Positions 601-62,080 of a stretch of DNA of 64,000 nucleotides are shown in pieces (the stretch's first letter is position 1; each line of letters begins with the position of its first letter). A model generated the notes under the pieces. It saw only the letters and a list, made by a program, of their open reading frames with translations. It had not been told where the DNA came from and ran no database searches. The stretch is from Chiloscyllium plagiosum (Eukaryota), in assembly GCF_004010195.1 (NCBI RefSeq), contig NC_057718.1, positions 53,813,615-53,877,614 of the forward strand, written 5' to 3'. The position numbers were made by a program, and so were the translations under genes.

Positions 601-1283
601 AAGGGAGGGGAGGAAACCGTGAATTAGCAAGTCGTGTTTTAATTGTAAATAAAGGCAATTACAAAGGCATGAAGACAGGGTTGGCTAAAATAGATGGGAA
701 AAATTTATAAGACAGTAAATAGGCACTGGTTGACATTTGAGAACTTGTTTAATAAATCTGAAAAAATATATATTCCATTAAGCAAGAACGTTTCTGCAAG
801 AATTTATCTACGATGAACAAAGGAAGGTAAATATGGTAGCAAACTGAAGGAAACTGTATGAAATGTTGTGAAGATTAGTGATAGGTAAGAAGATTGGGAG
901 AATTTTCCAAAACACCACAAGATAACCAAAAAAGGTGAGGTTAGACTATGAGAATAAGTCATCAAGAAATAAGGTAGCTCAAATAAACATTAGTCCTTTA
1001 GAGGATAATACTGGGGAAATAGTTCTGGGAAACAAGAAAATGGCAAATAGTCTGAAAAAGAATTTTATAGCTGTTTTCTGAGAAGAGCACACTAAGATCA
1101 TTGCAATAATAATCAGATATCATTGACAAAAAGGGAGGGAGGAACTTAAAACTATCAATATTAGCTGGAGGAAAAGTACTAGGAAAATAAATGTGACAAA
1201 AAATTGGCAAGTCTTCTGGACAGAAAGCTCTGTCCTCTTGGTCTTTAAAGAATTGATTGCCAAATACTGTATACAATGGTTGC

Positions 1284-1973
1284 CATAGTGAATGCTAAAC
1301 TCATAGAATATGAGCTCCCTGATTTGTGCTATTAATCTGGTCCAATCAGGGAGCACTGGCTCACAGATATGAACAGACGTGTTCCCCCTCCAACTCTATT
1401 TTGATTTAGTCCCTACCCTCCCCTTCACTGTTTTGATCACACTTGTGTCTCTCACTGTGTCTCACACCTACACACACACACCATGGGTGCTGGGGAAAAA
1501 TAAGTACTACCGCAGTTAGGCGGTAGTGTGGGGGTTTAATATATAGAATAAATAAATAAACGGAGAGAAGGGCATTGCTTAAAAAAAATGAACAGGCGTG
1601 TTTTTGATTTAGTCCCTGCCCTCCCCTTCACTGGTTGACCACACAGCATTGCCCTTTGTGAAGGGCACTGCTTGTCACTGGCCACTCGGGTGTTTCCTTT
1701 CTTCCTGGTGGTGGAAATTGAATAAAGATTCGTACACCTTATGTCTGTCACTGTGTCTCACACCTACACACACACACCATGGATGCTGGGGAAAAATAAG
1801 CACTACCGCAGTTAGGCGGTAGGGTGGGGGGTTAATAAAAAAAACAAAAAAAGAAATGAACAGACGTGTTAGAGATTCTGTTCACTCTGAGAGCTGGATC
1901 AGTGTCAAGGACTCTCCACACGTAAATAAAGGGTGACTTGGTAATGAGATACCGTCTTTGTAGAGTTGTTTCA
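1284..1973 (+). mobile_element. Solo LTR of the Gypsy family at 11822-17101, interrupted by non-LTR inserts
   Basis: Homologous to 11822-12055 (ctcatagaatatgag, ccaatcagggagc, gattctgttcactctgagag, aataaagggtgacttggt); ends ...tttca; 5-bp TSD GTTGC at 1279-1283 and 1974-1978. Confidence 0.9.
1383..1855 (+). mobile_element. Tandem pair of 5'-truncated non-LTR retrotransposon 3' ends (family A, probably Tx1 clade)
   Basis: Two related units (1383-1587, 1602-1855), each ending in a stem-loop and an A-rich tail, bounded by ATGAACAG(A/G)CGTGT at 1369-1382, 1588-1601 and 1856-1869; 1383-1409 reads SPSNSILI-stop, compatible with an ORF2 C-terminus. Confidence 0.85.
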
Positions 1974-2559
1974 GTTGCATGTTCCAAAGTTCCCTAGGTC
2001 TAGAAAGGTTCAAGTAGATTGGAAGGCATCAAATGTGACGATCTTATTCAAGAAAGGAGAAAGACAGAAAGTTAGAAACTATATGTCAGTTGATCTAACA
2101 AATGTGTTTGCATTACTTTCAATGGACACAGGTTAATTGTGCATTCCATGTGATTCCAATGTCCATTAATGGGCCTTGTAGCATTTTTAACCAATTAATA
2201 TGTTCCTCTCTCCATATTCCTAGCTGATGTTTTCCAGCATTTTCTTCCTTTAAACCTGCAACATCAAAGGTTTACATGTCACATATTCACTGATTCACAT
2301 CAGGTTGTTGACTCTATTTCTTACTCTGTGTGAGGCAAGTTATTTTCTACTCCAGTTCCAAAGAAGGTTCTTTAGACTCAAACATTAACTCTGTTTCTCA
2401 ATTTACAGAAAAATCCCAAGATTGATCTCTGGCCTGGGCTGCATCACTGGCTTCTTCCTTGACCCTATTCCACCTGAACAAAGCAGCAGCCCCAGGGAGG
2501 CACCGGACGGTTACCTCAGCTGTGCAACAGTCCAATAGTTGGCCCACACCATGGGGGTG

Positions 2560-3980
2560 CAGAGACTCCCCCCAGTAACAAGACCATGGGAGAACAGACA
2601 TTGGACACTTGGTAATCGAAAGCAATCTCAAATGGGTCTAAAAAATAGCACCATTATTAACAGGAGGAGCATTAAATCCACTGCATGATATGTCTCCACT
2701 TCCTGATGAAGGGTTTTTGCCTGAAACATTGATTTTCCTGCTCCTCGGATGCTGCCTGACCTGCTGTGCTTTTCCAGCACCACTCTGATCTAAACTCTGG
2801 TTTCCAGCATCTGCAGTCCTCACTTTGGCCTATGTCTCCACTTTGGCCTAAAGGGCCAGGAACAAAGATGACAAAGCGGACCTTCTGTTTTTGCAGGAGT
2901 GTGGCATACCACAGCTCATCAGCTACAGGAAAGTGTCGAGCTTGTGGGCCATCGGCATGCATTACGATCGGTTGTGGGGGGGGAGACAGTTGCTGTTTCT
3001 ATGGCCTGGCTATTCTGCTGCGAGGAGGTACCTTCAACATCTCTGAGGTTAATGGGGGGGGTGGGTGCCTCCTAGTGGCAGATATTATGTAAAGAAACAT
3101 TCCGCTGAGACTGATTAACATGTACATCCCAGTGGTAAAGAGTGAGTGTCTGGCTATCCTGCAGCAGCTCCCACTGCTGCTGGCAACTTCCAGACCAGTC
3201 ATTCTGGTCAGAGATTTTATTGGCATCCCTCACCCAGAGTACATCTTGTGCCCTTGCCATCCTCAATGCTTCCTCTAAGCATTGTTTAACATGGAGAAGT
3301 ACTGATTCATCAGCTGAAGGAGGACAGGAGGTTTCCTTGCCTATGTTTAACCTGGAGCCACGAACCTTCATGGGGTTTGGAGTCAATGTTGAGGACTCCC
3401 AGGGCAACTCTCTCCAGACTGTATACCATTCAGTCACCATCTCTATTTGGTTTGTCCTGCCAGTGGGACAGGATATATCCAAGGACGGTGATGGTTGTGT
3501 CTGAGACATTGCCTGTCAGGTACAGTTCCATGAATATGACTTTGTCAGGCTGTGAAACAGCTTTCCCAATTTTGGCACATTAACAGAGTTGACAGAGCTG
3601 TTTTTGCCTTATTGACAGCAAGTGGTCTGTCTGGTTTCATTTTTTCTTTAGATTTTGTGGCGATTATTATAACAAATTAACTTGTTAGACCATTTCAGAG
3701 GACAATTACAAGTCAACTGCATTACTGTGGGTCTGGAGTCACATGTAGGCCAGACCAGTTAAATACGGCAGATTAGTGAGCCTGAAGGACATTAGTGAGC
3801 CAGATGGGGTTTTCCAAAAATTGACAATGGTTTCATGATCATCAGCAGATTCTTAATTCCACATATATTTTATTGAATTCAAATTGCACCATCTGCTGTA
3901 GCAGGATTCAAACTCAAGTCCCAGAACATTAGCTGAGTGAGTGGATTAATAGTCTAGTGATAATCCCACGAGGCCATTGC
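2560..3980 (-). mobile_element. 5' part of an L2/CR1-group LINE: tRNA-like head running into a frameshifted APE endonuclease
   Basis: Minus strand: A/B-box-like head near 3900-3980, SINE-like body, then APE motifs (KQ.PD.VI..E.YL; ILSHWQD.PNRDG; PPSADESVLLHV; DVLWV) in broken frames. Confidence 0.75.
2702..2830 (+). mobile_element. PLE 3'-end fragment with decayed hammerhead motif
   Basis: cctgatgaagggtttttgcctgaaacatt...ccagcatctgcagtc matches the termini of the PLEs at 20833 and 58924; 13-bp TSD TATGTCTCCACTT at 2689-2701 and 2831-2843. Confidence 0.85.
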
Positions 3981-4026
3981 CTAGTTGCGAAGGAGTGGTA
4001 TGGCCTCATTGCTGCAGAATTCTCCA

Positions 4027-4933
4027 TATCATTGGACAGTTCTGTATCACCTGTCATTTGTGGAAAAAAGTTGCAAAGAGAAACACCTTTGACCACACGT
4101 CCATCAGGAAGTGGTCAGTGAGTAGCATCCTCAAGATCCTGTGGGAAAAGGAGATGGTGAATCCTGTTGCATGGTTCCCTGAGCAGACTGTCAAAGCCGT
4201 TTGCAGAATGCATTATCACCCGAACGAGCACCAAGACATCGCTTGGCTGGTGATGAGAAGGGCACTGCCCATCAGATCCTTCATGCACGCCCAGTCTCTG
4301 TGTGTTACCACACACTGCCCTCGAAGCGGTTATGCCAGTCAAGAGACTGTCACTCATTTCCTTTTGGAATGTGCCTTTGTAAAGAAGGTCAGGAGGAAGA
4401 TGCAGTGGTTTTTGTCCAGGTTCATCCTGAGTAGCTCTGTGACACAGGACTCTGGGCTCTACTGTCTGTTCACTGGAACTGACACCAAGACAAACATTGA
4501 CTGCGCCTAGAGGACCATCAACTCAGTGAAAGACACTCTTTGTTCTGCCTGAAATGTGCTGGTCTTCCAGGGTAAAAAGTTGACTTTGACTCAGTTTTGC
4601 AGATCGGCATGCTACAAGATCTTGGATTACGTGCTGAGGGACACAGTAAAGCTTGGGGGAGCTGCTGTCAATGCACAGTGATGAAAGACCGCTGCCAAAG
4701 TGTAACGAGGGTTCATTCAGTTGTCACACCCTCTGTCTCAAAATGAACATAAATAGTTTCATGCATAAGTAGAAAATGCATGTGCTTTTTGCACGTGTGC
4801 AGGAGCTCTGAGAAGTGACAAAATTCCACTGTTCTGTTGTTTTGTTCCTCTGCAAAGACTTTCAGAACTGAGTTAGAATATGTATAGATACTTACAGATG
4901 ATTTTATGAATAAAGTATATTTTTTGAAATAAA
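4027..4933 (+). mobile_element. 5'-truncated Tx1/L1-clade LINE (ORF2 C-terminal zinc-binding region plus 3' UTR)
   Basis: ORF 3977-4510 contains HQDIAWLVMRRALP...HCPRSG...ETVTHFLLECAF (zf-RVT-like CCHC motif); aataaa and A-rich end; 9-bp TSD AATTCTCCA at 4018-4026 and 4934-4942. Confidence 0.85.
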
Positions 4934-10294: not shown

Positions 10295-11821
10295 GTTAAC
10301 AATAGTGAAGGATAAATCTCTTTTATGTCTCCAAAGAAAAGCTATTTGTCTTACACAACAAAATGTGGTTTGTTGCAGGATAGCAAGAAGTACAAGTTGC
10401 ATTGACTAGTTGGGCATGATTACAAAAAACTGTCTCCAGCAAGAAATAATAGCCTGTCTCCATTGAGACCACATAACTCATCTCCTTGGTTCTCTTGCTG
10501 AAACTGTTTAACATTATCAGATTAGTTGGAGCTTAATGCAGTTTCAACATTAACCATTTCAGAACCATTACTTTATTATAACACCATATAATTGTAGGTT
10601 CTTTCTTATCAAACAACTTCAAATATCAGATTTGCTTCGGTCATATTTGAAAGTGTTGATCAGCTTAATAATTCTACTGAATTGGTACCTACTAATGTTG
10701 TGTGTCTGTGCTTGCAAGGAGCTGCACACTTGAGGTTATCTAACATCCATCTGACAGAAGGCTTTTACCCTATCAGTCTGGACTGAGCATATATCCAGTT
10801 CATAAAAGAGAAGTAACAATATATTAACCTGCTGTTCCTCCCAGATGCTAATCTTCGGAGAGTTGGATTCAAGTGACACTGCACTCAAGGCAGGAAACTA
10901 TCATTGCGATAGTCAACAGATATTGAGCATGCTTTAGTGATATTCTTGGTCTTTGATATTTTTGAGAATTGAGCTGATTTAAAGTAATAGGTGGTGAGTA
11001 GTAATTCTGGTCTGCCATCATTAATAATCACATAAGAACATTCTGGAATAAGAATAGCCACTTCAATCCCCAACAGTTGATCTCTTTAGCATTTTAACTC
11101 TCAGTAATAGAATCTAATGTGCATGAAGTTAAACAATTTTTTATATTCCATTCTTTCATGCTGAGAACAACAGAGTCACCCCTGTTATGACAGCCATTTA
11201 AAGCTTAACCATGCTACTTAGAGTTGATAATTGCTTCATTCAAAATGAATGCATTGTATTGTCCTCTGCTGGAAACATTATCCTTGTCTTGGCAGGATAA
11301 ATTTTGCCTTAAGGCTAGTATGATATTATGCCAAATTACTATTGAATATAATACACAAGGCAAGGGAAAAATCAGTACTAACATATTTAAATCTAGCATA
11401 AACTATCATATGGAAATAAGGGTTGTCATAATCTTGGTCTTTTGTTCAATAACATTTTCATCATGAGAATATCAATATGGGATAAAGATATTCAGGTATC
11501 TAATTTTTACAAACCGAGATTCATGAAAACATATATCATGGCCCTGATTGTTTACAACATTGAAGTACTATATCTCAATCAGTGGATTATGTATAAACTA
11601 ATCCACTGACTCTTTGAGGCTGTTAATTGTATGCCAATAGTAGTACATATCCCAGCTTACTCGGTGCAAATAATCAATCTTCATCTGGAAATTCTCTGGA
11701 TCAAGCAGGATTAATTTAGCAGAGGATCAGCAGAAATTGCAAGAAGTTGATGTTAAAGTTATTGCAGACAAATAGGAGGGCTGCTGTAGAAATTCAGTGT
11801 CCTGTGTCCTGTGAAGTCACA

Positions 11822-12055
11822 TGTAGTGACTATAACAAAGTCAGCTAGGTAGACCTCATAGAACATGAGTTCCCTTACTGGGGCTTAATCTATTCCAATC
11901 AGGGAGCCCTGGCTGACAGATATTACCAGGCGTGTCAGAGATTCTGCTCACTCTGAGAGTTGACTCTGAGGAAGTTGGATCAATGTCAAACACTATGCAA
12001 GCATAAATAAAGAGTGACTTGGTGATAGGTGACTGGTTTTTATGGAATTATTTTT
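11822..12055 (+). repeat. 5' LTR (uninterrupted, carries the empty target site)
   Basis: Starts tgtagtga; ccaatc 11895-11900; gatattaccaggcgtgt^cagagattc; aataaa 12006-12011. Confidence 0.9.
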
Positions 12056-12276
12056 GTGGAGGCAAAAGGAAAAACATTTGCTCCTGAAGAAATTTGCTTA
12101 CAATAGTCATCTTTGTGTTGAAGTAAGCATTGCTGGCACCATGCCATTATTTGGGAAGCTTGACTCGTTTTATTCTGCCTTCGAAGACTGGGCCCAGTAT
12201 GTGGAAAGAACATGTTATTATTTCCAGACAAATGACATTGGGGCAGATGAAAAGCAACAAGTAATTCTCCTGACAG

Positions 12277-12418
12277 TTATGCTTGCATAATGCTTGACAC
12301 TGATCCAGCTTCCTCAGAATCAACTCTCAGAGTGAGCAGAATCTCTGACACGCCTGTTCATATCTGTCAGTCAGGGCTCACTGATTGGAACAGATTAAGC
12401 CGCAATAAGGGAACTCAC
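12277..12418 (-). repeat. Inverted partial copy of the 5' LTR inside gag
   Basis: Reverse complement of ~11865-12006, including the empty site gatatgaacaggcgtgtcagagattc. Confidence 0.9.
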
Positions 12419-14151: not shown

Positions 14152-16044
14152 ATCAAAATAAACTTCTGGTTAAATGGTGACCCTGTTTTAGTGGGTTGAT
14201 ACCGCCGCAGTTGTGTCAGTGATTGCAGAACCAGTCTTTAACAAAATTTGCTCTGGACCCCAACCCTTAAATTTGTGTAAGACCTTGGCCTCCTCATATT
14301 GTATCAGGATAACATTGGCTTACAAATGGCCCAGTGGAGAAAAAAGCCCAACAATGTATGCTGCCTGGAATTTGGCTGATGCAGAGCACAAATATGCCCA
14401 GATAGAGAATGAAGATGTGATGGTCATCTTTGGTATGAGAAGGTTCCACTAATACTTTTAATAGTAAACATGTAATAGTAACAGACCACAAACCCCTGCT
14501 GGGGCTACTAAAAGAGGACAAAGCCATACCACCCATAGCCTCAAGTTGAATTCAGCAGTGGGCTCTCATTCTAACTGTGTACAATTCCAAGTTCAAACAC
14601 CGTCCGGAAGGCTAAATAGCAAATATGGATGCCTTGAGCTCCCTCCCACTGGCAGATACAATACTGGTGGTGCCATCACTGGAAGAGTCCATTCTAGTTT
14701 TAAACTTTCTGGACATCCTTCTAAGCATTCACTGACAATATCAGAATGTGGACGCAAAAAGATCCAGTTCTGACAAAACTAAACAGCTGGTGGTGATAGG
14801 GAAAACCTAAGAGCCTTCACTATCAGAATTGAAACCTTTATAGATCCGGAGAGAATGACAGACTGCCAGATCACTGTAGAGGATGGCATGAGTGATCATC
14901 CCAAGCAAAGGTTGCTGCCAGAAACTGGTTGAACTCCACTAGGGCTGTCCAAAATGAAGATGTTAGGGAGAGGTTATGTCTGGCAGCCGGGATTGTATGC
15001 AGACATAGCCATGTTGATGGGGCAGTGCCCAGGGTGCCAACAAGGACAAAAACTACTGCCAGCAGATCTCTCACATTCATAGTCCAGGTGAACCCTGGAC
15101 TCAGTTACACTTCAACTATGCCTGTCCTTTCATGGACTCAATGTTCTTAGCCATTGTGGATACCCATTTAGAGTCATTGGACATGCACAGAGTTCATCCA
15201 TCAAACATAGGGACAGTGACAGAAAACCTGCAAGCATTTTTTGCAATGCATAAAGAAGTGTTGGTCGCAGACAACGGGCTGAGAATTTGACTATTTCCTC
15301 GAGTCAACTGGCATTTGGCATAAAAGGACAGCTCCTTAATATCCATTGCCCAATGGTTTGGTGGAAAGAGTAGTCCAAACCTTGAAGGCAGGCTTAAAGA
15401 AACAGCCTGTAACTTCATTTGATACCAAATAATACCGGGTTCCTGTTTGATTATCAGACGACACCCTCATGGAACTACAGGGACATCTCCAGCAGACTCG
15501 CTAATGGGGAAAAGACCTGCACCAGGTTAAATCTGATCTTCCCAGACCTGGCTGGCAGTGTGAAACAGCCAGTACAGGACACAAGATTCCGAGAGAGACA
15601 GTTTACTTCAGGGGATGATGTTTGGTACAGGAACCACGGGAATGGCACTGCATGGGTAAGGGGCAAGGTCGCGCAAGGTCAGGTCCCATGACATACAATG
15701 TTCGGGTAGGTGAGATGGTACTGCGCAAGCATGTGGACCACATGAAAGCTGCAAACTCGCAAATGGGACAGGAGTGAAACATACCCAGCCCCTCAGAACA
15801 ACCAGAATGCTGTCAGAACCATGGGTTCTCCCCCACTGTCCAGCATCAAAGAAATCTCAGAATCTGAGATCAACACATTGAAGAAGATGATGAATTTCTT
15901 CCAAGACACACGAGGCTACAATCCAGTATATACTGCCTGTATCCAAGGCTGAGATGGAGGAACTAGACCCAATTGTGAAAATGCCCCAGGATAGACTGCA
16001 ATATAAAAAACAGGTCTACCTCCCTGGACTTAGAGGGGGCGGGA

Positions 16045-17101
16045 TATACCAATTGTAACAGGGTCAGCCAGGTGGACCTCATAGAAAATGGTCCAATCAA
16101 GGACCCCTGACTGGCAGATATAAAAGAGTGTAGGTGCAAAGGGGTGGGTGAGAGCCCAATGGTACTTGGGGCAAACTGAGAGCCAGAAGGTGGGCAGCCG
16201 TCCTCAGCGCTGTCACCCCGGGCAGGTACCGGGGCGGGCTTCTACTACCAGAGCAGTGCCACATAAATAGGACTGTTTACCGTGGTTTCCATAGCGACTT
16301 TGAATCACAGATTGCCTATCACAAGAGGAGACTAATCATTAAAACATTTATGTGAAACTGGGATTTGAGGTTTGTCCTCATGTCCCTGTAAACTGTTTGA
16401 ACGGTAGGGTTTAGGGCCTGGCTTTGCTGCTCCTCTCCCTTGTAAAATTGCTGTCTCTTGTATGCAGCTGTAAATGTAACTTTGTTGTAAACTGTTTTTG
16501 TAATTTGTTTAATAAAATATTTAAAAAAATAAACAGGAAAAATTAAAAAAAAAAGAGTGTACCCCAGGCAGGCACCAGGTGTTGAAAGGTGTGTCAGGGC
16601 GGACCAAGAACTGGAAGGGGCATGGGGTGGACCGTGAGCCGGAAGATGCATAGGGGTGGGCTGCCTTAGAGTGGCCGGAAGGTGGGAGGGACGGGGGGGG
16701 GCTTGATGTGTTTTCTAGGGGTCTGTATTGATGCACTGTTTCTTGTGTAATTGGACTGTCTTACATGTACAAGTGTCATTGTTACTGTTTTATAATGATT
16801 GAAGCTGGGATTTGACGTTTCTCATTTCCCTGAAAACTGGTTGAACGGTAGGGTTTGGGGCCTGGCTTTGCCATTCCTCTCCCGTGTAAACTTGCTGTTT
16901 CTCTGTATACAGCTGTAAATGTTAATTGTTTGTGTAAACTGTGAATTGTTTAATAAAATATGAAAAATAATAAAAGAGTGTCAAAGATTCTGCTTACTCT
17001 GAGAGCTGGGTCTGAGAAAACTGGACTAGTGTCAAGTACTGTGCATGTCAAAATAAAGGGTGACTTGGTGATGGGATACTGGCCTCTGTGGTGTTATCTC
17101 T
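16045..17101 (+). repeat. 3' LTR, interrupted by tandem non-LTR inserts
   Basis: Follows the polypurine tract; 16045-16131 and 16970-17101 align to the 5' LTR. Confidence 0.9.
16132..16969 (+). mobile_element. Two tandem 5'-truncated non-LTR 3' UTR inserts (family B, L1/Tx1-like)
   Basis: Units 16132-16550 and 16561-16969 share ~160 bp of 3' end (ctgggatttga...gaacggtagggttt.gggcctggctttgc...gtttaataaaata plus A tail) but differ 5' of it; bounded by (at)aaaagagtgt at 16120-16131, 16551-16560 and 16970-16981. Confidence 0.85.
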
Positions 17102-20633: not shown

Positions 20634-20832
20634 TCACTTTCTCATCCACGAGGATTGGACCCAATGTTCAATGGGAGGACCAGTGGCAATTTCTGGCTGC
20701 CAGGTGAAGTGGGCAGGAGAAACTGGAAGTTCATAAGAGTGAAACGCATTCTGAAAATGTTGGAAATTCTAAAAAAAAAGTGGCCATAGATGTCAGGTCA
20801 TCTTGAGGAGGTGGAAAGGAAATATCAATGGC

Positions 20833-22277
20833 AAAATCAATGACTGCAGATGCTGGAAACCAGAGTCTAGATTAGAATGGTGCTGAAAAAGCACAGCAGT
20901 TCAGGCAGCATCCGAGGAGCTTCGAAATCGACGTTTCGAGCAAAAGCCCTTCATCAGGAATAAAGGCAGAGAGCCTGAAGCGTGGAGAGATAAATGAGAG
21001 GAGGGAGGGGGTGGGGAGAAAGTAGCATAGATTACAATAGGTGAGTGGGGGAGGAGATGAAGGTGATAGGTCAGGGGGGGAGGAGGGGGGAGTGGATAGG
21101 TGGAAAAGAAGATAGGAAGGTAGGACAAGTCATGGGGACAGTGCTGAGCTGGAAGTTTGGAACTGGGGTAGGGTGGGGGAAGTGGAAATGAGGAAACTGG
21201 TGAAGTCCACATTGATGCCCTGGGGTTGGAGTGTTCCGAGGCAGAAGATGAGGCATTCTTCCTCCAGGCGTCGGGTGGTGACGGAGCATCGGTGAAGGAG
21301 GCCCAGGACCTCCATGTCCTCAGCAGAGTGGGAGGGGGAGTTGAAATGTTGAGCCACAGGGTGGTGTGGCTGATTGGTGCGGGTGTCCCAGAGATGTTCC
21401 CTGGAGTGCTCTGCTAGGAGGCGCCCAGTTTCCCCAATGTAGAGGAGACCGTATCGGGAGCAACGGATACAATAAATGATATTGGTGGATATGCAGGTAA
21501 AACTTTATGGATGTGGAAGGCTCCTTTGGGACCTTGGATGGAGGTGAGGGAGGAGGTGTGGGCGCAGGTTTTGCAATTCCTGCGGTGGCAGGGGAAGGTG
21601 CCAGGATGGGAGGGTGGATTGTAGGGGGGCGTGGACCTGACCAGGTAGTCACGGAGGGAAAGGTCTTTGCAGAAGGCAGAAAGGGGTGGGGAGGGAAATA
21701 TATCCCTGGCGGTGGGGTCTGTTTGGAGGTGGCGGAAATGTCGGCGGATGATTTGGTTTATGCGAAGACTGGTAGGGTGGAAGGTGAGCACCAGGGCTGT
21801 TCTGTCCTTGTTACGGCTGGAGGGGTGGGGTCTGAGGGCAGAGGTGCAGGATGTAGATGAGATGCGATGGAGGGCATCTTTAACCACGTGGGAAGGGAAA
21901 TTGCGGTCTCTGACGAAGGAGGCCAACTGGTGTGTTTTGTGGTGGAACTGGTCCTCCTGGGAGCAGATATGGCAGAGGCGGAGGAATTGGAAATACGGGA
22001 TGGCAGTTTTGCAGGAGGTAGGGTGGGAAGAGGTGTAATCCAGGTAGCTGTGGGAGTCGGTGGGTTTGTAAAAAATGTCGGTGTCAAGTCGGTTGTCATT
22101 AATGGAGATGGAGAGGTCCAGGAAGGGGAGGGAGGCGTCAGAGATGGTCCAGGTAAATTTAAGGTCGGGTGGAATGTGTTGGTGAAGTTGATGAAGTTGA
22201 TGAATTGGAGCACGAGGTGGCGCCAATGCAGTCATCAATGTAGCGGAGGAAGAGGTGGGGAGTGGTGCCGGTGTAAT
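20833..22277 (-). mobile_element. PLE (Neptune-like): RT C-terminus, GIY-YIG endonuclease and 3' terminal repeat
   Basis: ORF 21414-22283: PDLKFTW...LPFLDL...TDIFYKPTDSHSYLDYTSSHP...LTFHP...PCHRRNCKTCAH; frameshifted GIY-YIG; hammerhead motif at 20926-20961; 10-bp TSD TATCAATGGC at 20823-20832 and 22278-22287. Confidence 0.93.
20926..20961 (-). ncRNA. Minimal type I hammerhead ribozyme motif in the PLE terminal repeat
   Basis: Minus strand ttcCTGATGAagggcttttgctcGAAAcGTCgatt: catalytic boxes CUGAUGA and GAAA, 4-bp stem II, GUC triplet. Confidence 0.75.
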
Positions 22278-31737: not shown

Positions 31738-32640
31738 GGGCAGAGTGGTGCTGGAAGAGCACAGCAGTTCAGGCAGCATCCGAGGGCAGGAAAATCCAAT
31801 GTTTTGGGCAAAAGCCCTTCATCAGGAATACAGGCAGAGTGCCTGAAGGGTGGAGAGATAAATGAGAGCAGGGTGGGGGTGGGGAGAAAGTAGCATAGAG
31901 TATAATAGGTGGATGGGTGGTGGGATGAAGGAGATAGGTCAGAGAGGAGATTGGAGTAGATAGGTAGAAGATAGGCAGGTAGAACAGGTCAAGGGACAGT
32001 GCTGAGCCGGAAGTTTGGAACTGGGGTGAGGTGGGGGAAGGGGAAAGCGGGTGTCCCGGAGATGTTCCCTAAAGCGCTCTGCTAGGAGACGTCCAGTCTC
32101 CCCAATGTAGAGGAGACCGCATCGGGAGCAACGGATACAATAAATGATATTGGTGGATGTGCAGGTAAAACTTTGATGGATGTGGAAGGCTCCTTTGGGG
32201 CCTTGGATGGAGGTGAGGGAGGTGGAGTGGGCGCAGGTTTTGCAATTCCTGCGGTGGCTGGGGAAGATGTCAGGATGGGAGGGTGGGTTGTTGGGGGACG
32301 TGGATCTGACCAGGTAGTCACAGAGGGAACGGTCTTTGCGGAAGGCAGAAAAAGGTGGGATGGGAAATAGATCCCTGGTGCTGGGGTCCATTTGGAGGTG
32401 GCGGAAATGTCAGCGGATGATTTGGTTTATGCAAAGGTTGGTAGGATGGAAGGTGAGCACCAGGGGCGTTCTGTCTTTGTTACGGTTGGAGGGGTGGGGT
32501 CTGAGGGCAGAGGTGCGGGATGTGGATGGTGGATTTGTAAACCCACCGACTCCCACAGCTACCTGGATTACACCTCTTCCCAACCTACCTCCTGCAAAAA
32601 TGCCATCCTGTATTCCCAATTCCTCTGCCTCCGCCATATC
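31738..32640 (-). mobile_element. Neptune-like PLE copy (GIY-YIG) with an internal deletion and an inverted 5' segment
   Basis: ORF 31939-32391: HRRNCKTCAH...IIYCIRCSRCGLLYIGETGRLLAERFREH; ~32535-32640 is in + orientation (KPTDSHSYLDYTSS.P); same family as 20833-22277. Confidence 0.92.
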
Positions 32641-57944: not shown

Positions 57945-58155
57945 GAGGAGAAAGTGAGGACTGCAGATGCTGGAGATCAGAGCTGAAAATGTGTTGCTAG
58001 AAAAGCACAGCAGGTCAGGCAGCATCCAAGGGACAGGAGAATCGACATTTCAGGCATAAGCCCTTCTTCAGGCGAAGGGCTTAGCCCGAAACGTCGATTC
58101 TCCTGTTCCTTGGATGCTGCCTGACCTGCTGAGCTTTTCCAGCAACACATTTTCA
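57945..58155. mobile_element. PLE-terminus fold-back insertion
   Basis: Arms 57982-58066 and 58074-58157 are near-perfect reverse complements; 15-bp TSD GCATAAATTAAACTG at 57930-57944 and 58156-58170. Confidence 0.92.
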
Positions 58156-58292
58156 GCATAAATTAAACTGAATGGTTAAATTTGAATTGTTGTCAAAAAT
58201 AGCATCCAATGCAGGTATCTGTTTCATAGCCAAATGTTACATATTTTCAATTTTCCAGTACACTCTGAGACTCCTAACTAGTCATATGACAG

Positions 58293-59050
58293 GTGCCCAC
58301 CCTATCTGCATTCTGTAGAGACATTCCCTCTACGACACCTTTGCTAGGTCCACACCCCCCACTAAGCCACCCTCCACTCCTGGCACTTTCCTTTGCTACT
58401 GCAAGAGGTGTAAAACCTGTGTCCACACTTCCCCCCCTCACCTCCATCCAAGGCCCCAAAGGATCCTTCCACATCTGACAGAGATTTTCCTGCACCTCCA
58501 CACATGTCATCTACTGTGTCCCTTGTTCTCAATGTGGTCTCCTCCCATCCCATTCCACCAATGACATGCAAGTCCTGTGTCTTCTCCATCACCAAACTTG
58601 AGCCACCTGATGCCGAGAGGAAGAACATCTCACCTTGGGACCCTCCAACCACATGGGATCTATGTAGATTTCACCAGTTTCTTCATCTCCCCTTCCCCCA
58701 CTTTATCCCAGGTCCAATCCTCCAACTCAGCACCACCCTCATGCACTGTCCTACCTGTCCATCTTCCTTCCCACCTATGCAGTCCACCTTCCACTCCAAC
58801 CTATCACCATCATCCCCCACCTTCATCTACCTATCACATTCCTAGCTACCTTTACCCCAGCCCCAAAACCCTCCCATTTATCTCTCAGCCCCCTTGGCAC
58901 CCCTACACCTCCACCCCCACATTCCTGATGAAGGGGTTATGCTCAAAACGTTGACTCTCGTGCTCTTCGGATGCTGCCTGACCTGATGTGCTTTTCCAGC
59001 ACTACACTTTTTGACTGACCTCGAGCATCTGCAGTCCTCCCTTTCTCCTT
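58293..59050 (+). mobile_element. Decayed Neptune-like PLE (GIY-YIG region and terminus)
   Basis: LTSIQGPKGSFHI; homologous to the reverse complement of 20833-21700; cctgatgaaggggttatgctcaaaacg at 58924. Confidence 0.85.
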
Positions 59051-61394: not shown

Positions 61395-62080
61395 CATATA
61401 TTAATGCCTGGTGTACTGATAGTAATAAGGTCAACCAGCTAGACCTCAAAGAATATGAGTTTCCTGATTGAGACTATTCATCTGGTTCAATCACAGTGCC
61501 CTGGATGATATGAAAAGATTGGAGTCCAGGGTTTGACTTGGTATGAGGCAGTGTTATAGTCAAGGACTGTTCATGTTAAACAAAGGGCAGCTTCTGTGGA
61601 ATTATTTCACCTGTAATAGGGTTGTACTATGAGGAAAAGTCTGCTCAGGTGAGGTTTATATCAGTTTCAGTTTAGAGGAGGAAGAGCTGACTTGATTGAA
61701 ATATATAAGATCCTGGGGGAGGAGGGATCTTGATAGAGTAGGTGTGGAAAGAATATTTTCTCTTATGGAAGAATCTAGGGAACACTATTTACAAATGGGG
61801 GAGGGAGGGGTTGCGCATTTAAGGTGGAGATAAGGAAAAGTTTTTTTTATTTAGAATTTTGAGAGTCTTTGGAACTTTGTTCCTCAAAAAACAGTGGAGG
61901 CAGATATTTTTAAGACAGTTGGAGGTAGCTTCTTGTGAGACACAAGGGTGAAATATTATCAATGTTAGGCAAAAAAAACTGTGGACTTGAGGTAACAATC
62001 AAAGCACCCATAATCTTATGAAATGGTGGAATAGGCTCAAAGATCCAGGTGTCCTACTCTGCTCCTAATTTGTATGTTTG
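61395..62080 (+). mobile_element. Decayed CR1 3' fragment interrupted by a solo LTR
   Basis: gacttgattgaaatatataagatcctg (DLIE.YKIL); ttggaact; tail cctactctgctcctaattt. Confidence 0.7.
61412..61609 (+). mobile_element. Older solo LTR of the same Gypsy family (no insert, target region diverged)
   Basis: tgtactga...agacctcaaagaatatgagtttcctgatt...ggaattatttca; TSD cctgg (61407-61411) / cctgt (61610-61614). Confidence 0.8.

Follow-up and report, generated by a model that had tools for sequence, protein, structure and literature searches.

Preferential insertion of a Tx1-like LINE family and a probable short partner at one site beside the TATA box of a long terminal repeat in Chiloscyllium plagiosum

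Why is one kind of long terminal repeat (LTR) split, at one and the same position, by A-tailed inserts of two unrelated-looking families? This question is raised by a 64,000-nucleotide stretch of Chiloscyllium plagiosum DNA (contig NC_057718.1, positions 53,813,615 to 53,877,614; hereafter the window), for which an earlier note, made from the letters alone, had proposed that a Tx1-like long interspersed nuclear element (LINE) uses the LTR of a Gypsy element as its dedicated target. Our analysis makes it very probable that the first insert family (family A) is a LINE of the Tx1 clade, that its copies enter this LTR at a single site through target-primed reverse transcription, and that a second family (family B) shares the site.

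The locus itself reads as the earlier note had described it. Motif searches and blastn agree that the first LTR (copy 1) is split by two A-tailed units lying between three copies of a short motif. Exact copies of ATGAACAGRCGTGT are found at 1369-1382, 1588-1601 and 1856-1869 on the plus strand and at 12348-12361 on the minus strand, along with a two-mismatch copy at 11922-11935; these five matches to the 14-mer (up to two mismatches) compare with 0.65 expected in the window, and none of 100 shuffles reached five. By blastn, the two halves of copy 1 (1300-1382 and 1852-1945) together correspond to the undivided LTR at 11800-12060; the left one has a CCAAT-like box and, in place of an intact TATA, the mutated form gatatgaac. 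The empty target sites at 11919-11944 and, inverted, at 12340-12365 read as stated. The unrelated-looking family that had been seen at the same junction near 16045-17101 consists of two family-B units, which cut LTR copy 4 (16056-17097) at the homologous position, with AAAAGAGTGT at 16122-16131, 16551-16560 and 16972-16981. Two of the five LTR copies in the window are occupied (Table 1).

What are the family-A units? Searching the 3.56-Gb assembly with unit 2 (1602-1855) as query gave at least 2,839 candidates, and the 40 best of these, which were scored, match over the full length at 90-95% identity. At most family-A loci the similarity runs on upstream into the coding sequence of an open reading frame (ORF2) that terminates at ttttga, where unit 2 starts, and the units are the 3' end of a LINE longer than 6.7 kb with an apurinic/apyrimidinic (APE) endonuclease, a reverse transcriptase (RT) and an apparent CCHC finger. 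At L030 (L numbers designate genomic loci), Pfam matches PF03372 (Exo_endo_phos) with 45.9 bits (cut-off 24.5) at 3593-4690 and PF00078 (RVT_1) with 126 bits at 1264-3911, both on the minus strand, and endonuclease and RT follow in the same order in L029; zf-RVT (PF13966) reached 23.8 bits, under its cut-off of 27.5, and a CCHC motif (CLFCG..H....C) is legible in P0001. The RT-containing 882 residues share 426 of 809 positions (53%, 803 bits) with the Xenopus laevis 'Transposon TX1 uncharacterized 149 kDa protein'. Xenopus Tx1 is the best named relative of ORF2, compared with 177 bits for human L1 ORF2p and ~72 bits for R2, and by this similarity we place family A in the Tx1 clade, close to Tx1L, as had been supposed. 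Open frames of 180-313 amino acids upstream of ORF2 in L029 gave no Pfam match. A 35-mer from the 3' untranslated region (UTR) has 7,045 genome matches (up to 3 mismatches) and a 35-mer from the 5'-region junction has 69, from which it follows that nearly all family-A copies are 5'-truncated; such truncation is usual for LINEs.

Runs of N, 99 to 3,413 bases in length, lie in or beside many long LINE copies, at L008, L010, L017, L019-L021, L024, L027 and L029-L033, and the long family-A 'open frames' of the genome search tables were set aside as mostly such runs, which inflate frame lengths. Within unit 2, a perfect conserved hairpin (CTACCGC-AGTTAG-GCGGTAG, 1808-1829) stands ~15 nucleotides (nt) ahead of the A tail. 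Some copies show G-T where others have G-C, with the pairing retained. Family B is without this hairpin, which may serve as a recognition stem at the 3' end. The folding of unit 2 was unremarkable (z = -1.35).

We then asked where family-A copies lie by reading the 3' flanks of all 40 best-scoring copies. In a strict test, in which ACAGGAGTGT, allowing up to 2 mismatches, had to be found no further than 75 nt behind the body, 26 of the 40 passed (one of them, L023, probably by chance), compared with 807 of 20,000 random 75-nt stretches of the window (4.0%) and 1,104 of 20,000 in the loci (5.5%); 16 of 31 further family-A copies in the same loci passed as well. Judged by eye, 32 of the 40 flanks are target-like, in that a form of (AT)AAACAGGAGTGT directly follows the A-rich tail and is itself followed by R (CAGAGGTTCTGTTCACTCTGAGAGCTGG...) or by a truncated next unit, and three are ambiguous. 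This class counts the variants ..GCAATGT^CAGACATC and a second LTR type, ..CAGGAGATT^CAGGAGTCTCC; the second type, a related one, is hit at the homologous place (..AACAGGAGATT^CAGGAGTCTCCTCAG..) at L016, L027, L035, L041, L052 and L057. We looked for the contrary outcome, in which most copies lie in unrelated flanks, and found five copies clearly elsewhere (L007, L021, L023, L039, L045). The proposed insertion into one LTR position is borne out by these flanks, and the preference exceeds the rule of more than 20% of flanks used in PMC4494074, both in family A and in family B (see below). Because the copy at L007, which lies outside an LTR and has its own 16-base duplication (AATAGATTTGGTGTTG), lacks the motif, and because empty LTRs hold a single motif copy, the motif belongs to the target and not to the element; the candidate explanation that it is family A's own 3' end is ruled out by the same observations.

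The site can also be viewed from the side of the LTR. Its left junction, CTGGCTGACAGATATAAACAGGAGTGT plus 8 bases with up to two mismatches, has 7,786 genomic matches, of which 4,274 end in T and 3,512 in A, C or G, and the reversed control string has none genome-wide. Of the 100 matches listed first in either set, we classed 4-7 (T set) and 54 (A/C/G set) as continuing with something other than R, so that roughly a quarter of the ~7,800 LTR left junctions are, on this estimate, occupied exactly after GTGT; what follows varies greatly from match to match, and family-A 3' sequence can be recognised in at least 18 of the 54. Family-A insertions are always in LTR orientation, and occupied LTRs often hold head-to-tail arrays: on contig C1, 38 of 99 exact family-A 3'-UTR markers have another on the same strand no more than 2 kb away, and LTR halves flank arrays at nine loci (L001, L002, L006, L012, L018, L022, L026, L027, L033).

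Family B turned out to share with family A both the target site and the type of duplication. A query from the 3' part of its unit 2 (16700-16950) gave at least 2,582 genomic candidates, of which 40 were scored, at 87-92%, and 20 flanks were read; in 16 of these 20, judged by eye, AATAAAAT and a brief run of As lead into that LTR site, and in the other four they do not. The full copy that we read (L092+L093, ~1.9 kb) proceeds from U3 through AAACAGGAAGTGT, R 1-62, ~1.3 kb and the 3' region to AAAGAAGTGT and R-U5. This single copy contains no long reading frame, and tblastn of family-A ORF2 against it gave no match; a second autonomous LINE at 16132-16971 is not supported by it. Most likely, family B is a non-autonomous retroposon mobilised in trans by this Tx1 enzyme or by one related to it. 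As a separate observation, a GC-rich module of ~121 nt (ggaaggtggg...ctgtcc...) stands in tandem inside family B (window 16577-16697; L092:1300-1831). It forms the 5' part of family-B unit 2, and nearly all genomic matches share the same module borders.

How might one position be hit so often? The junctions suggest the following course of events. The target reads GATATAAACAGGAGTGT^CAGAG. A first nick, in the bottom strand, would fall within a TATA-like box (5'-..CCTGTTTAT^AT-3') where the duplication has its left edge, and the T-rich 3' end at this nick would prime on the A-rich tail; a second nick would cut the top strand 10-14 bases further on, after GTGT. Each insertion would thereby duplicate the motif and recreate a usable site on both sides. 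As the motif lies inside the duplication, every event would leave two usable sites, in which later insertions, differently truncated, could stack head-to-tail. By analogy with Tx1L, we infer that the specificity of this reaction is set by the endonuclease.

A complementary idea is that specificity comes mainly from base pairing, with read-through transcripts annealing to the nicked target, as has been reported for some ribosomal DNA (rDNA) and telomere LINEs. At L002, L005, L006, L010, L013, L014 and L019 a target copy and 5-60 bases of R precede a second poly(A), which indicates that LTR-resident elements were transcribed through their ends and that such read-through RNAs served as templates, and co-transcription with the target is cited in PMC4494074 as strengthening specificity. 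In most copies, however, a plain A-rich tail stands directly before the motif; moreover, family B uses the same site with a different 3' end, and the Tx1L endonuclease alone is reported to nick its own target specifically in vitro (PMC1950540). We consider it rather unlikely that base pairing is the main determinant.

A further possibility is that the inserts became fixed in LTR subfamilies, or that segmental duplication or unequal crossing-over built the arrays, and that the LTR element carried them along as it spread. The arrays are indeed tandem, some neighbours are similar (L017, with two units and the same right flank), and an insert between U3 and R of a 3' LTR could in principle be copied into both LTRs. 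Identical 5' junctions in every copy, the outcome expected from fixation, were looked for, but the junctions after GTGT differ widely from copy to copy, and these varied continuations exclude a fixed subfamily junction. Moreover, units of one array differ in LINE start points and tails, families A and B are mixed in arrays (L002, L005, L055, L081), and copies outside LTRs have duplications of their own (L007), all of which makes fixation or duplication very improbable.

Alternatively, integration might be of the generic L1 kind, by an endonuclease that merely prefers T-rich/A junctions and for which the LTR TATA box is a frequent instance. The nick that we propose (TTTAT^AT; TTTT^AT in LTR copy 4) does resemble the L1 consensus TTTT/AA given in PMC1950540, and some copies lie at unrelated A/T-rich sites (L007, L021, L039, L045). 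Yet the share of copies at one motif stands far above its background, the second nick would be fixed after GTGT, ~7,800 LTR sites are too few against the A/T-rich sites of a 3.56-Gb genome, and Tx1L, the closest relative, has a sequence-specific endonuclease, which leaves generic integration an exceedingly small chance. Finally, we give next to no credence to capture of LINE RNA through template switching by the LTR element's own RT at the U3/R border during strong-stop transfer, which would fit sense inserts near the expected border with poly(A) adjoining R, since it leaves unexplained the 10-14 base duplication with its constant right edge, the insertions outside LTRs with ordinary duplications, the many-unit arrays in solo LTRs and the presence of an APE-RT LINE of a target-specific clade.

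Several points nevertheless weigh against insertion of a Tx1-clade LINE and its partner at a dedicated site. The preference is not absolute, given the five of 40 family-A and four of 20 family-B copies at other sites, and the samples are best-scoring ones (for family A the 40 best of at least 2,839, for family B 20 among the 40 best of at least 2,582) that lean towards window-like copies and are no random draw. The by-eye classes and the occupancy are hand counts, the latter extrapolated from the first 100 listed exact matches to the two-mismatch sets, and a continuation classed as 'not R' after GTGT may also reflect a deletion or some other insertion. Placement in the clade is by best-match similarity, without a tree of reference elements. 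Many long copies contain runs of N, and we saw no complete element, although no search aimed at an intact copy was made; likewise, no enzyme-coding family-B copy was found, on the reading of one full copy.

What kind of element carries the target? The same-sense LTRs at 11836-12040 and 16056-17097, only ~79% alike, bracket a decayed interior of ~4 kb that opens with a gag-like start; a CCAAT-like box, a TATAAA box and AAATAAAG are legible in the LTR. Inside lie an RNase H-like piece (14192-14449; Pfam PF17917, RT_RNaseH, E 4.7e-5) and an integrase zinc-binding piece (14933-15079; PF17921, Integrase_H2C2, E 9.6e-4), both below the curated cut-offs. The order RNase H then integrase fits a Ty3/Gypsy or retrovirus-like element and excludes the Copia order. 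Reading through the pol region with X at stops returned the same sub-threshold matches and nothing more, a protein search against longer proteins found no named homologue of the RNase H fragment, and every genomic relative of this piece is decayed. Of the 'Gypsy LTR' of the earlier note, the LTR stands, and Gypsy is likely, judging from these sub-threshold Pfam matches alone.

The position of the site within this LTR raises the question whether the elements profit from its promoter. The site falls between the TATAAA box and R, 16 bases past the T of TATAAA, which by the usual TATA spacing would place it ~10-15 bases before the LTR start site. In all 20 long family-A 5' regions examined (L066-L085; L029:340-560), the end of ORF2 and ~95 bases of 3' UTR come first, and this leader directly joins a stretch, TGAGAGTTGGATCAGTGT..CAAGGACTCTCC, that matches LTR R from ~+18 to +62, with neither poly(A) nor motif between. 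Of the 20 junctions, 19 are intact and one is spanned by a deletion; a private G substitution (GTGTTTGCC) is common to most junction copies, so the junction was inherited rather than made anew. The leaders begin at differing points, each right behind a target copy. One reading is that a resident copy lost its poly(A) signal and came to serve as leader for an R-headed element downstream of it, the two together being transcribed from U3. The R-derived stretch starts about where the TATA spacing predicts the LTR start, which hints at, and does not prove, use of the LTR promoter by family A. We raise as a tentative possibility, with the odds against it, that the insertion point was selected for its place between TATA box and transcription start, such that each new copy, whatever its truncation, lands behind an RNA polymerase II promoter; if so, the elements may need no promoter of their own, the R-derived stretches of families A and B would be marks of this habit, and LTR promoters would be launch pads for the LINE and its partner. 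According to PMC4494074, where reliance on flanking transcription is discussed, a transcribed target may spare an element its own promoter.

Three results speak against this selection for a promoter. First, the family-A 5' region contains a 205-nt tandem repeat (2.2 copies; L029:771-1228), which could be an internal promoter. Second, a pattern for copies starting at R +18 after the motif had 61 matches, mostly LTR deletion variants. Third, RNA reads are 3'-biased and uninformative on start sites or full-length RNA: in run X10 (single-cell poly(A)), 1,041 reads fell on L029:1-7232, almost all on the 3' UTR units at 1-484, with depths of 270 and 39 at these units and of 0-1 over the 5' region and ORFs. 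The first mate lay on the minus strand, with loose poly(A) ends behind 309-312, and the reads come, at the level of the family, either from poly(A)+ RNA that covers the 3' end in sense or from oligo-dT priming nearby. Run X11 (also single-cell poly(A)) had no reads on L029:1-7232. An Rfam search of L029:1-1200 returned no credible family, and neither a ribozyme nor a 3' promoter was found there. Apart from this, 17 X10 reads have poly(A) and target motif ahead of a truncated unit, which indicates that some RNAs cross array junctions.

Table 1. Target LTRs, their inserts and related features in the window, with positions counted from its first letter.
Feature	Position	Strand	Evidence
LTR copy 1, left (U3) part	1300..1368	+	blastn to 11800-12060, 82% over 83 nt
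Target-site duplication, copy 1, ATGAACAGACGTGT	1369..1382	+	motif search
Unit 1, 5'-truncated family-A 3' end	1383..1560	+	blastn: 1382-1442 97%, 1442-1560 89%
Possible third tiny insertion, 13 nt of family-A 3' UTR (aagggcattgctt) and A8	1568..1587	+	read by eye; tentative
Target-site duplication, copy 2, ATGAACAGGCGTGT	1588..1601	+	motif search
Unit 2, family A: ORF2 stop codon (ttttga), 3' UTR, A-rich tail	1602..1855	+	genome search, 90-95% identity
Target-site duplication, copy 3, ATGAACAGACGTGT	1856..1869	+	motif search
LTR copy 1, right (R-U5) part, with aaataaag poly(A) signal	1870..1945	+	blastn, matches LTR positions 119-227
LTR copy 2, undivided, empty site 11919-11944	11836..12040	+	blastn
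LTR fragment 3, inverted, undivided, empty site 12340-12365	12277..12417	-	91% complementary; blastn
Decayed pol remnants of LTR element	14192..15079	+	Pfam, below cut-off
LTR copy 4, left part, ending in AAAAGAGTGT (16122-16131)	16056..16131	+	blastn
Family-B unit 1, 5'-truncated, AATAAA signal, A-rich tail	16132..16550	+	blastn
LTR copy 4, target copy 2 (aaaagagtgt)	16551..16560	+	read in sequence
Family-B unit 2	16561..16971	+	genome search, 87-92% identity; 89% to L092/L093
LTR copy 4, target copy 3 (16972-16981) and R-U5 part	16972..17097	+	blastn
Fifth LTR, diverged, same kind, site undivided	61412..61600	+	blastn

Some further observations on these features are recorded here. Unit 1 has an internal deletion and an A/T-rich tail, and a degenerate target copy, ataaacggagag (~1555-1567), precedes the possible tiny insertion. 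Such mini-units, of 13-55 nt of family-A 3' UTR around the hairpin GCCCTTTGATGTGAAGGGC, were seen at L011, L019, L026, L072, L077 and, tentatively, in the window, and ones like that of the window also at L068 and L072. Each lies between target copies and ends at ..GCTTGTC or ..TTTTCCTA with poly(A) behind; as these ends fall far short of the usual 3' end, some templates stopped well before it. The LTR pieces 11866-12006 and 12277-12417 form an inverted pair, 91% complementary and 270 nt apart, that encloses an apparent gag-frame start (MPLFGKLDSFYSAFEDWAQYVE..), an odd rearrangement of the LTR element. Elsewhere in the window, a short interspersed repeat (..gatgctgcctgacctgctgtgcttttccagcacc..) occurs in both orientations at 2700-2830, 20830-20960, 31741-31828, 57982-58157 and 58921-59010, once as a near-perfect hairpin pair (57982-58055 / 58084-58157), and the blocks 20878-21798 and 31746-32467, 88-93% alike and ~10.7 kb apart, stem either from a local duplication or from a long repeat present twice.

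How does this system compare with known ones? The earlier note could match it to no described case, a claim that does not hold: Tx1-8_Crp and Tx1-4_AMi of crocodilians are described in Kojima 2015 (PMC4494074) as preferring LTR retrotransposons, the same parasite-on-parasite arrangement, in archosaur hosts as opposed to a cartilaginous fish. Literature searches aimed at this particular LTR-targeting Tx1 system found no paper describing it. Target preference is a recognised trait of the clade, whose targets include the DNA transposon Tx1D (Tx1L), U2 genes (Keno), microsatellites (Kibi, Koshi), Mariner-N4_AMi (Tx1-Mar) and Harbinger elements (Tx1-9_AMi). Like family A, Tx1L of Xenopus laevis combines an APE endonuclease with an RT and inserts at one sequence within another transposable element, and its C-terminal zinc finger has a probable counterpart in the CCHC motif of family A; the target of Tx1L, however, is the piggyBac-type Tx1D (PMC4494074) and not an LTR, and family A differs further in a site beside a TATA box and in thousands of occupied sites, often with arrays. 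The apparent pairing of families A and B has parallels in Tx1-Mar with SINEU-3, and in Keno (Kojima and Fujiwara 2004, cited in PMC4494074), where an autonomous Tx1 element and a short non-autonomous partner share one target and 5' heads are borrowed from other transcripts (U1/U2, as against R here); these heads come from small nuclear RNAs and the targets are Mariner-N4_AMi or U2, whereas here both head and target come from the LTR (PMC4494074).

Here nature provides a test case for the question whether a LINE can subsist on the promoter of another element. In Drosophila telomeres, HeT-A is transcribed from its upstream neighbour in a head-to-tail array. R2 and R1 in rDNA are likewise site-specific LINEs, and R2 relies on outside transcription (PMC4494074), but these elements and HeT-A/TART belong to other clades and have other targets, and R2 has a restriction-like endonuclease. 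The case in C. plagiosum, a cartilaginous fish, is a well-documented addition to the few LINEs known to target other transposable elements, with both junctions defined to the base, thousands of natural insertions and a probable partner family at the same site. An enzyme close to the biochemically studied Tx1L, together with the motif around TATAAACAGGAGTGT^CAGAG, suits work on how APE endonucleases read sequence, and for annotation the system explains a common composite repeat of this genome, in which LTR halves are parted by arrays of A-tailed units. Compared with its relatives, for which targeting of LTRs by Tx1 LINEs is already known, it is notable for the base-exact site on the side of the TATA box, its scale, its arrays and the R-derived head.

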